Sequence record: MN585195.1
DNA: 48,430 bases
From: Pseudomonas phage AUS531phi
Direction: 5' to 3' (one strand)
Shown here: positions 27,001 through 30,000 of the stretch, piece by piece
Layout: the number at the start of each line of letters is the position of its first letter
Numbering within the stretch: the stretch's first letter is position 1
Made by a program: the position numbers

Positions 27001-30000
27001 CTGGACACCCTCGCACAGATAGGTGGCGGTAACGTGAAGTTGAGCATCTCACGGGACAAGAAGCGTGTTGCAGAAGGAGCAGATCGCCTCTCTGACAGGG
27101 CTCGAAGAGCTGCGCAGGCATTTATGCAGATGCCGACGGTGCGAAAAATCAAAATTGACATGGAAGACGAAAACGGCATCGTCTACCCTATCGATCTCAT
27201 CGCGGATCGTCTAAAGGTCAAGATTGAGATACTAGTGAACGGGCGCTATCCGAATGAAGCAGCCATGTACAGGGCTCTTCGAGGAGCAAAGGATGACCAG
27301 CGCGACAATCTCCAGCAGATCTTCGGGGTTCCCGGTGCGGCTCTTAATTAGAGCTGCACTCTTTTCTACAGTCTGCTTTGCCGTGAGCATAGCTCCAGGG
27401 ATTCCGGGCAGGATTACCGACATCATCTCGGTCCTTTCCTCGGTAAGTGCGACGCTGCTTGGCTTCATCATCGCGGCAGCAACGCTCTTGATTTCCTTGA
27501 TCGACCGACCATTCATCAAGAACCTGAACAAGACAGGTCATATGAGCCAGCTCTGGCGACAGTTGGTTAGCTCAGGAGCAGGAATGCTTTTGGCGCTCAT
27601 TGCCTGTCTGGTGGCGCTAACGCTCAGTGACAAACATGCCGTCTACTCGATCGCAGTGAGTTTTAGCTTCCTATCGGTTGCCGCTTTTGACTTAATCGAT
27701 TGCACGACGAAATTGATGAAGGTCATGGCCCGCATTTAGGTCACAGGCTGCATGAAAAGCAAAAGCCCCGCAGTTGCGGGGCTTTCCATTGTGCCTCAGT
27801 GCCACCCTTCTCGCGTCGATCCGCACATGAGGCACTTGCTGTAGTTTCCCCAGCGGCCGGATAGATGGCGCATCGGGCCACCGCAGTTGTGGCAGCCCCC
27901 GTCCAGTTCGCCACGAGCCCAGCGGTACTCCAGATAGGCACTCCAGCAGAGCCACAGGAAACCAGCTCCCCCGACCACCAGTGCGCCATAGAAGATCGCG
28001 CGTTTGATGGGCATTAGCACCTGGTCAAACACTCCAGCTGACTCAGGTGTCATCGCGACGAGTCCCATGACGAACAAGCCGATGATCACAAGCAAGACTG
28101 GCCGGGCGTATAGGCGAAACGCGCGTTCAAGGTCATTCATGAAGGACTCCGTTCCTATGGATGGGCCACATCATCTACCAGTACGCTGCGAAATGCCATC
28201 AGGCTAGAACGGCGCCGGCTCCTCATGCAGGTGCTGCACCACCATTCCAGGCAGCACGTCCATATCATCGGCTTCGATTTCCGGCCCCTCCTCCACCATC
28301 GCCTCCCAGTGCAGCGTGATGGTTCCATCCTCATTCTCGATCATCTCTAGGCCGTCCGTTTCCTGCAGCTCGCCTATCACCTGGGTCCAGGCCTGATCCG
28401 TATCGCTCTCCAGCCGCCAGATCGTTGCCTGGCGCAGTGAGGCCGCACGCGGCGAGTTCACCATCGCCGAAACGCGCAGCCGCAGCCTGTCTATATCGGA
28501 CATTCCGCGCTCTTCACGACCGCCTTTCACCTTCATCTGCTGGCTCATCAGAACCTCCCTTCACTGTATGTGCATACAGTATTTTCTAATTCCTATCTCA
28601 GCAATCCCCTCGAAAGCATCCCTGGCGCCGTCTCAAAAAATTTAGCTTAACGATAAATTTTTAGCGCGAAGCTATTGACCAAACTTTAGCGTATGGCTAA
28701 ATTTTTCATCAACGCCAACGCAACATGGCGCCAGGCCACCGAGCCGACCGCTCTTTCACAACCTGCGCCATGAACAGCTAGCCGCAATGCGGCGAGGCAG
28801 CCCCGGCCATCACCCGTGGGGCGACAGAAAGTCGGGTGAGCAACATCAACAGCAGAACGCATCGCCTCTGCGGCGACCGGCGATCAGATAGGTGCTGAGG
28901 CAACACCTACCAACGCGATGGCGACCCTTACTCAGGGCGACCAGAGACGGCTGATCGAGGGCAAAATGCCCGAACCGTGTGAACGACCCGCACGCGATGC
29001 GCAGCGCCGCCCAGCGCTAACCGGGCAGCAGCAACACCGATTTCCTCGATGCCCTTGGAAACAGGGGCATCAGGGAAGTCAACGAACACCAGCACGAAGG
29101 CCTATGAAAATAGGCACCGGCATCTGTAACGATGCTAAATCTTGCCTGTCCTACCAATCAGTGACGTAGATACTCTGAGCTTCACCAAAACGCATTATCT
29201 CTCGCTCAAACTTCATACCGACGCGATTAAGTAGGCGGATTGATGCATCGTTCTTGCTTTGCGTTTCAGCAATCACCCTCTTCAAAGCCAAGGTGTCACT
29301 TGCATACTGCAACGCAAGAGTAAGTGCCTCAGTCGCGTACCCCATCCCACAGTGCTCTGGAAGCAACGCGTAAGAGACTTCTACGTCATTACCATCATGA
29401 TGAGTATCTAACGAGATTACACCTGCAAACTGCTCGCCTTGCCTTGTTCTGATTGCCCAAAATGGAAGCTCTCTCTCGATTGAAACTTCTACCTGAGCTC
29501 GCCGCACCGCAACCTCCCGATCAACGAGACCTCCTAAATAGGCACGCACGTCTGGATTGGTGTACAACTCCACCAAGTCGGAAGTATCTTTCTCTTGAAC
29601 AGCGCTAAGATAAATAAGAGATTGCATAAATACCTCATGAGAAAACCCATCATCTTTTTCTATTTATACTAAATTTCTTGATCGAGGACTATCTGGTAGG
29701 AGCCTCGAACGAATCTCGATAGGCCTTGAAAGCCTCTATCGCATGCTCATTTCTATTATTTCCGTCAGAGTCATCGAGCATCCTTTCCTCTGGCGTCTTG
29801 CCTCCATAGTAGTCTTCGAACCAACTGAAGTACTGCAACCTGATAGAGCCAGGGTGAAACTTACTATCAAGCGCCTTCCACCAAGTCAAACAGGCTGGGC
29901 AAGGTGGAAGCTCCGTGAAGCATATAATTGTTCGGACTCCTCGCGCATAGAGTTCTTTTCCGATAGGGCCTGGAGAATTCTGCATGCCAAGTATCATTAT

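Follow-up and report, generated by a model that had tools for sequence, protein, structure and literature searches.

A DUF1654 gene under a predicted LexA-box promoter in the immunity region of a lambda-like Pseudomonas aeruginosa prophage

A two-gene unit divergent from PL

Pseudomonas phage AUS531phi (sequence record MN585195.1; 48,430 nucleotides (nt), analysed over its whole length and referred to below as the window) is a prophage of the lambda-like kind from Pseudomonas aeruginosa, and its immunity region contains a short minus-strand unit in which a gene of the DUF1654 family (gene 1) is followed by a gene for a small membrane protein (gene 2). The unit is placed between the cargo genes that follow the repressor gene cI and the OL operators with their PL promoter, and is oriented divergently from PL and convergently with the cI cargo operon. 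An earlier note on this DNA, made from the sequence, had described two minus-strand open reading frames (ORFs) here, the first acidic and the second with two transmembrane (TM) helices and a CxxC...CxxC motif, and both were found as described, as was a LexA-type box, CTGTATGTGCATACAG, at 28564..28579. The box had been placed between the promoter and the ribosome-binding site, and this had to be corrected, as it overlaps the -10 hexamer. The features of the unit, in the direction of its predicted transcription, are as follows.

28576..28604, minus strand: predicted sigma-70-like promoter, from reading of the sequence; -35 TTGCTG (28604..28599), 17-nt spacer, -10 TACTGT (28581..28576)
28564..28579: putative LexA (SOS) box, CTGTATGCACATACAG on the minus strand, CTGTATGTGCATACAG as scanned, overlapping the -10 hexamer
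28554..28560, minus strand: ribosome-binding site of gene 1, AGGGAGG, from reading of the sequence, ending 5 nt before the ATG at 28548
28204..28548, minus strand: gene 1, DUF1654, 114 amino acids (aa), from the ORF and its match to Pfam PF07867
28141..28203, minus strand: 63-nt spacer between gene 1 and gene 2, with the gene 2 ribosome-binding site GGAG at 28150..28147
27796..28140, minus strand: gene 2, two-TM four-cysteine membrane protein, 114 aa, from the ORF
27761..27786, minus strand: intrinsic terminator closing the unit; 11-bp stem with 7 G-C pairs, then a T-run

The terminator scan reported no terminator-like site in the 63-nt spacer, and a terminator is present only after gene 2, so that the sequence makes co-transcription of the two genes plausible. 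The hairpin at 27761..27786 can also serve the convergent cI cargo operon, and in most related loci a hairpin likewise follows the DUF1654 unit directly. The generic promoter scan did not list the promoter of the unit, since its -10 hexamer departs from TATAAT.

The minus-strand sequence at 28581..28562, which spans the box, is TACTGTATGCACATACAGTG. The pattern CTGT-N8-ACAG has a single match in the 48-kb window, namely the box itself, and shuffling of the window yields 0.55 such matches per window, or 0.30 for CTGTAT-N4-ATACAG with up to two mismatches; an exact match at all 12 bases would be expected about 0.001 times per window by our own estimate. Taken alone, one box in 48 kb is weak evidence, and the pattern by itself is not significant.

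Conservation of the box and promoter in related loci

Comparison loci (L numbers below) were gathered through relatives of gene 1 and gene 2 and comprise genomes, viral contigs, assemblies and isolated phages. The 41 loci that contain a DUF1654 gene represent 29 distinct promoter contexts, and CTGT-N8-ACAG is found at a constant position in all of them, exactly in 27 and with one mismatch in the remaining two; where the distance was measured, the box is 30-38 nt before the annotated start codon. The consensus of the related boxes, TACTGTATGTATATACAGTA, has two differences from the gammaproteobacterial LexA box consensus, TACTGTATATATATACAGTA, and both are central. The core promoter is kept as well, with TTGnnn, a spacer of exactly 17 nt and TACTGT in about 20 of the 29 contexts, while flanks, operators, PL leader and host species all differ among the boxed loci. 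The boxed DUF1654 module is present in the isolated phages phi297, H66 (F116-like), LESphi3, PotUPM1, VW-6S, YMC11/02/R656 and TC7, and in an Azorhizophilus prophage.

Because the box is conserved at the same position in related loci, it goes beyond what chance would produce. It resembles the sites of LexA-regulon promoters in being near the consensus, in overlapping the predicted core promoter and in having been conserved while its flanks diverged. We therefore accept the predicted LexA site as functional, chiefly from this comparative footprint, which is strong as comparative evidence.

Gene 1 encodes a DUF1654 protein with a conserved acidic tail

The product of gene 1 is acidic (isoelectric point 4.4; 24 Asp+Glu versus 10 Lys+Arg) and belongs to Pfam DUF1654 (PF07867), which it matches over residues 19-84 with 60.5 bits (family cut-off 27) and an E-value of 1.3e-16. 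A further match, to phrog_2707 (E 1.7e-25), is to a PHROG of no assigned function. A profile search identified 314 related clusters; all of the 120 matches listed carry PF07867, and nearly all of the named ones are from Pseudomonas. In the AlphaFold2 model, residues 18-81 form a small alpha/beta core (predicted local distance difference test, pLDDT, about 90), followed by a disordered acidic linker at residues 85-102 (pLDDT below 50) and by the C-terminus ...VVQHLHEEPAPF, the tail ending in EEPAPF. A C-terminal x-Pro-Phe after an acidic stretch is found in 88 (73%) of the 120 related clusters listed, and the acidic residues and the Pro-Phe end are kept even where the linker cannot be aligned, as in ...VVDDSEDPF or ...EEDETPF. 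Among ORFs of 80 aa or more from the window and L001-L039, this PF ending is confined to DUF1654 ORFs, and the short DUF1654 forms in H66 and LESphi3 do not have the tail.

A sequence search of gene 1 against solved structures gave chance-level matches (best E 0.07), structure searches gave no meaningful match, and the PADLOC and NCBIfam scans gave none. Similarity to antirepressors of the Tum, Ant or KilA kind was not found either, DUF1654 being the sole Pfam match and the PHROG match being to a family with no assigned function. Our search for literature on DUF1654, on PFL_2098 and on LexA control of Pseudomonas phage genes returned only a phage genome note and the preprint of Price et al. 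(bioRxiv 10.1101/072470). According to that preprint, DUF1654 genes of several P. fluorescens strains matter specifically for resistance to cisplatin, and LexA is predicted to target close homologs, PFL_2098 among them; the published genes are chromosomal and located upstream of a gene for an endonuclease (Price et al., bioRxiv 10.1101/072470). PFL_2098 is outside every prophage tabulated for strain Pf-5 (PMC2647930 Table 1), and the family therefore also works outside phages. Among the phage copies, DUF1654 proteins that are 88-95% identical occur beside CI repressors whose DNA-binding domains are unrelated (21-35% identity) and whose operators differ.

The earlier note would have been refuted had homology searches shown the two ORFs to be non-coding or members of a housekeeping family. 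Both ORFs are coding and conserved, and DUF1654 is a family linked to DNA damage and not to housekeeping.

Gene 2 is a cargo cassette

The protein encoded by gene 2, a predicted inner-membrane protein, has two hydrophobic helices (approximately residues 10-31 and 46-70), followed by the zinc-ribbon-like C-terminal CxxC...CxxC motif composed of C83, C86, C103 and C106, and its AlphaFold2 model (mean pLDDT 81) consists of a helical hairpin and a small beta ribbon. An exhaustive profile search recovered 128 representatives at E<=0.001 with the same size and layout, and in an alignment of 115 sequences (114 representatives and the window protein) the four cysteines are 97-100% conserved. Gene 2 has no match in Pfam, PHROGs, PADLOC or NCBIfam, and ten of its relatives have none in Pfam.

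Gene 2 directly follows the DUF1654 gene in the window lineage, in L008 and in L027, and is one to two genes further away in L002 and L005, while in L003 a terminator and an opposite-strand gene come between the two. A Halopseudomonas prophage has a gene 2 relative in the same slot with neither DUF1654 nor box, more distant relatives are found in non-phage contexts, also lacking the box, and no LexA box is present within 450 nt upstream of the gene 2 relatives in L035, L001, L003 and L037-L039. Conversely, the majority of DUF1654 units do not include gene 2. Since relatives of gene 2 exist elsewhere without a LexA box, the two genes are not an obligate pair. The spacer that forms the leader of gene 2 is common to the window, L001, L003 and L008; in close relatives, gene 2 and this leader are conserved jointly. 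Gene 2 is thus a cargo cassette that moves with its short leader, gene 1 is the conserved core, and the predicted SOS control of gene 2 in the window is due to its landing place behind a boxed DUF1654 gene. Of the LexA-wired two-gene module originally proposed, the predicted wiring and its divergence from PL stand, given a box in all 29 contexts, two of which have a mismatch at one base; the two genes are not a fixed pair.

In P. citronellolis (L001), where no DUF1654 gene is present, a frame upstream of the gene 2 relative (at about 5960..6000) ends in ...VNEEQAPL and a stop codon. It looks like a remnant of a DUF1654 C-terminus, which suggests that this cassette may have been derived from a DUF1654-gene 2 arrangement.

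Possible roles of the unit

On balance, we lean towards the interpretation that the unit is an SOS-induced accessory unit of a lambda-like P. aeruginosa prophage, acting on the DNA-damage response of the host. In an undamaged lysogen, host LexA bound to the box overlapping the -10 hexamer would keep the promoter off; upon DNA damage, RecA would be activated, LexA would cleave itself and the promoter would fire, and this release would be independent of the inactivation of phage CI. The transcript, ending at 27786..27761, would give rise to the DUF1654 protein and, by read-through in this lineage, to the two-helix zinc-ribbon membrane protein. The LexA box and the DUF1654 gene would together form the conserved, selected element, with gene 2 as a cassette in the cargo slot behind it. 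For the DUF1654 protein, a role in the host's DNA-damage response is the most likely, in preference to one as a specific CI antirepressor; the protein may dock onto other proteins with its terminal Pro-Phe and disordered acidic tail, and might either improve the survival of damaged cells or set the conditions of induction. The analysis establishes the anatomy of the sequence, the conserved box and promoter, the membership of the family and the modular context, and from these we infer LexA binding, co-transcription of the two genes, the host-directed role with the direction of its effect, and docking.

Several observations weigh against this interpretation. The identity between DUF1654 proteins follows that between the S24 domains of the accompanying CI repressors (Spearman 0.56), and not that of the PL leader (0.02) or the OL region (0.07), though both are physically closer. 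This pattern also fits a functional link to CI, and as a test for an antirepressor such co-variation is informative but confounded by physical linkage. Furthermore, the presumed cleavage site (CI residues around 165-175) reads AAMG, GAMG or ASLG in the window CI and in most CIs beside long DUF1654 forms. LexA-type repressors have Ala-Gly at the cleavage site, and the CI of LESphi3 has the canonical AAG. Because Ala-Met-Gly or Ser-Leu-Gly replace Ala-Gly, self-cleavage of these CIs is not assured; the reading reflects a non-canonical cleavage site or else a shift of one residue in the alignment. The cisplatin phenotype was observed for more distant, non-phage members in another species group, and the phage copies may not share it. 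A promoter belonging to gene 2 itself may be present in the conserved 63-nt leader, where only weak hexamers can be discerned by eye. Finally, LexA control of the unit is deduced from the sequence pattern and its conservation.

The observations on CI bear on a different explanation, which we regard as improbable though worth weighing, namely that DUF1654 is a LexA-controlled modulator of CI, acting either as an antirepressor in the manner of Tum and the Gifsy proteins, or via the S24 domain as a brake on, or a helper of, RecA-stimulated CI cleavage, with LexA as the real or an additional trigger of induction. The DUF1654 gene is always in the immunity region beside a CI gene, its identity tracks S24 and not the closer PL leader and OL, and Ala-Met-Gly or Ser-Leu-Gly instead of Ala-Gly is found in the CIs beside its long forms. 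In PotUPM1 (L040 2379..2873), the annotated cI encodes only 164 aa, with an N-terminal DNA-binding domain like that of the window CI and no S24 domain, and is directly convergent with, and adjacent to, a LexA-boxed DUF1654 gene; this short cI may be truncated, may result from an error in sequencing, or may encode a repressor that genuinely cannot be cleaved. However, the S24 correlation is explicable if a single inherited DNA segment has DUF1654 at one end and the 3′ half of cI at the other, and the CIs retain their catalytic serine motif GxSM (GDSM in the window CI) and lysine motif IKR, indicating that selection for self-cleavage persists. DUF1654 has no homology to known antirepressor families, and in Pf-5 a DUF1654 gene predicted to be under LexA control is outside the prophages. 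Its loss is reported to sensitise P. fluorescens to cisplatin (Price et al., bioRxiv 10.1101/072470), the opposite of the effect expected from losing a lysis inducer, but compatible with a brake on induction.

A doubtful explanation makes gene 2 the payload, with gene 1 as its leader or partner, and treats it as an SOS-triggered membrane effector, i.e. a toxin, a Kil-like division inhibitor, a holin-like protein or an exclusion factor. Gene 2 does encode a small two-TM protein that is probably co-transcribed from the LexA-boxed promoter; its relatives recur in the same slot in diverged phages, behind DUF1654 or replacing it, and the slot otherwise contains defence-like cargo such as a RexB-like protein and AAA_15/AAA_21 ATPases. 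Against this, gene 2 is missing from most DUF1654 units, its stand-alone relatives (L035, L001, L003, L037-L039) have no LexA box, and in L003 the terminator and the opposite-strand gene separate the two genes. No similarity to known toxins, holins or Kil was found in the Pfam, PHROG, PADLOC and NCBIfam scans, and the conserved cytoplasmic zinc ribbon suggests the binding of a ligand or partner rather than simple membrane damage. The antirepressor, Kil-like inhibitor and SOS membrane toxin that had been put forward as candidate functions gained no positive evidence, gene 1 being a DUF1654 gene and gene 2 unmatched in the four libraries, and a membrane effector is favoured by nothing except the position of gene 2. 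It is very unlikely that the unit acts as RNA, with LexA-released convergent transcription lowering CI through interference or antisense pairing on the cI cargo operon and with the ORFs secondary: although the unit and the cI operon converge in every locus examined, we largely reject the idea because terminators close the unit (a strong one in the window, and hairpins after DUF1654 in most related loci), and, in addition, both products show conservation at the protein level, where some residues are invariant and substitutions are conservative, and 0 to 2.7 kb of cargo separates the unit from cI.

Comparison with known systems

The DUF1654 unit resembles the chromosomal genes described by Price et al. 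in protein family, in the association with a LexA box and in the range of genera. It differs from them in that the phage copy, divergent from PL, belongs to a temperate phage's immunity module, and in that the window protein represents a longer subfamily with the acidic linker and the ...PAPF end.

Tum of coliphage 186 and the Gifsy-type antirepressors of Salmonella are small phage proteins that are silenced by LexA and encoded near the immunity region, and these systems pair with repressors that are unable to cleave themselves. The DUF1654 gene would be analogous to them as a small, LexA-gated phage gene near the immunity region through which the SOS response could reach the prophage via LexA. 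In contrast, DUF1654 has no sequence relationship to these proteins, its family has non-phage members, and the window CI carries an S24 domain with catalytic motifs and a presumed cleavage site Ala-Met-Gly. DinI and the DinI-like genes of enterobacterial lambdoid prophages encode small, acidic, LexA-regulated proteins that modulate RecA-dependent reactions, and may offer the nearest analogy for the action of DUF1654; a sequence comparison of gene 1 with DinI was negative.

The C-terminal tip (DDDIPF) of SSB, the protein that binds single-stranded DNA, is described in PMC5872125 as a docking peptide for many repair and replication proteins. The DUF1654 tail appears similar to it in its predicted disordered linker, its acidic residues and its terminal x-Pro-Phe carboxylate, and differs in that the usual tip, EEPAPF, has fewer acidic residues beside Pro-Phe and Ala for Ile. 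We treat this resemblance in sequence as a lead and not as a result. A rather improbable extension of it would make DUF1654 proteins a class of SOS-timed regulators that dock by an SSB-tip-like tail onto the RecA/SSB machinery or onto the S24 domain of CI, thereby setting the damage threshold of the lytic switch in Pseudomonas lambdoid prophages.

The SSB ORF of a related prophage (L046 990..1487, minus strand) has DDDIPF followed by nine further residues before the stop codon. This extension is unusual, as the motif normally needs a free C-terminus, and it may reflect read-through or an error of annotation or sequence.

Gene 2, for its part, can be compared with the rexA-rexB cargo beside cI, since it occupies the cargo slot of the immunity region near a DUF6731 gene and a weakly RexB-like gene; it differs in being on the opposite strand, under the LexA-boxed promoter and outside the cI operon.

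The DUF1654 family itself, its predicted LexA control, its DNA-damage phenotype and the DUF1654 label in public records are already published or annotated. Within the literature searched, what is new is that lambda-like Pseudomonas phages have the unit as a constant component of their immunity module, that its box is kept in every one of the 29 contexts (in two of them with one mismatch), that the C-terminal motif is conserved, and that gene 2 behaves as a cassette. The case is well supported but ordinary, and is unsurprising in view of the known family and its LexA link.

Virulence, the behaviour of biofilms and how antibiotic treatment turns out are affected by temperate phages of P. aeruginosa, which fluoroquinolones induce via the SOS response. 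In E. coli and lambda, LexA is normally cleaved at lower damage than the phage repressor. If most immunity modules of lambda-like Pseudomonas phages contain a LexA-gated gene, these prophages would read damage via two channels, CI and host LexA, and the DUF1654 unit would be switched on in lysogens that are damaged and not yet induced. Should the docking idea hold, a family that has had no mechanism would provide the whole phage group with a LexA-dependent second input into the lysis-lysogeny decision. The phage unit thus offers a testable handle on an uncharacterised family with a DNA-damage phenotype.

Prophage setting and neighboring genes

A chromosome segment of CP187262.1 is 99.99% identical to the 16-kb stretch around the locus, and the same immunity module is found in strain M18 (CP002496.1) and in many further assemblies. 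The surroundings of the unit had been described correctly in the earlier note, including the terminator, the OL/PL operators, the S24 domain of CI and the RexB-like membrane protein, the latter a weak match. The neighboring features are listed below.

25553..26410, plus strand: CI-like repressor gene, with a Peptidase_S24 domain (Pfam E 2.2e-17)
26455..27739, plus strand: DUF6731 gene, then an overlapping membrane-protein gene, downstream of cI on the same strand
28642-28656, 28661-28675 and 28686-28700: OL operators, from the operator pattern search
28675..28703, plus strand: PL promoter, TTGACC-17 nt-TAAATT, from the promoter scan, directed away from the LexA-boxed unit
28749..28762, plus strand: boxA-like element CGCTCTTTCACAAC, following PL

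The membrane protein encoded before the terminator has a weak match to RexB (PADLOC E 3.7e-5), and together with the DUF6731 protein it is a possible Rex-like exclusion pair. In related phages, the slot downstream of cI contains differing cargo, including AAA_15/AAA_21 ATPases, methyltransferases and toxin-antitoxin genes. Cro-like and CII-like genes are found on the strand opposite to cI. The CI operator pattern TTAGC-N5-GCTAA has five matches in the window, all of them at OR (25470, 25519) or OL (28642, 28661, 28686), and at least five matches were obtained in none of 100 shuffles.

The PL transcript would begin with a leader of about 250 nt (window 28703..29000, plus strand), the PL-proximal part of which, some 110 nt that surround the boxA-like element, has matches in 34 Pseudomonas phage records; among the 25 matches listed, 24 have no annotated gene underneath. 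In L002, L003 and L007 the boxA-like element reads CGCTCTTTAACAAC, the consensus for boxA in rrn operons and in the nut sites of lambda. The leader with its boxA-like element is probably the nutL of an N-like antitermination system.

Antisense within the PL operon is a low-GC island (29151..30273, minus strand; 47.8% versus 63% for the window), which contains a gene for a GNAT acetyltransferase and a gene for a 194-aa protein belonging to no family, with an HSE...PCPAC motif that appears cytidine-deaminase-like by eye. The island is variable among otherwise near-identical prophages, and is absent from L029 and L030. In the PL operon itself, the gene at 30471..30875 (plus strand) encodes a CsrA/RsmA homolog of 134 aa (NCBIfam CsrA, E 2.2e-25), in which the match covers residues 12-64 and is followed by a 70-residue C-terminal extension. 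Such a gene is also annotated in phi297 and H66, and a phage-borne copy of a global translational regulator may merit a separate study.

An Rfam scan of the whole window reported nothing besides one tRNA. The corresponding gene (46047..46133, minus strand; 59.7 bits) adjoins an ORF of 355 aa (44860..45927, plus strand), and this region is probably the integration-site end of the prophage.

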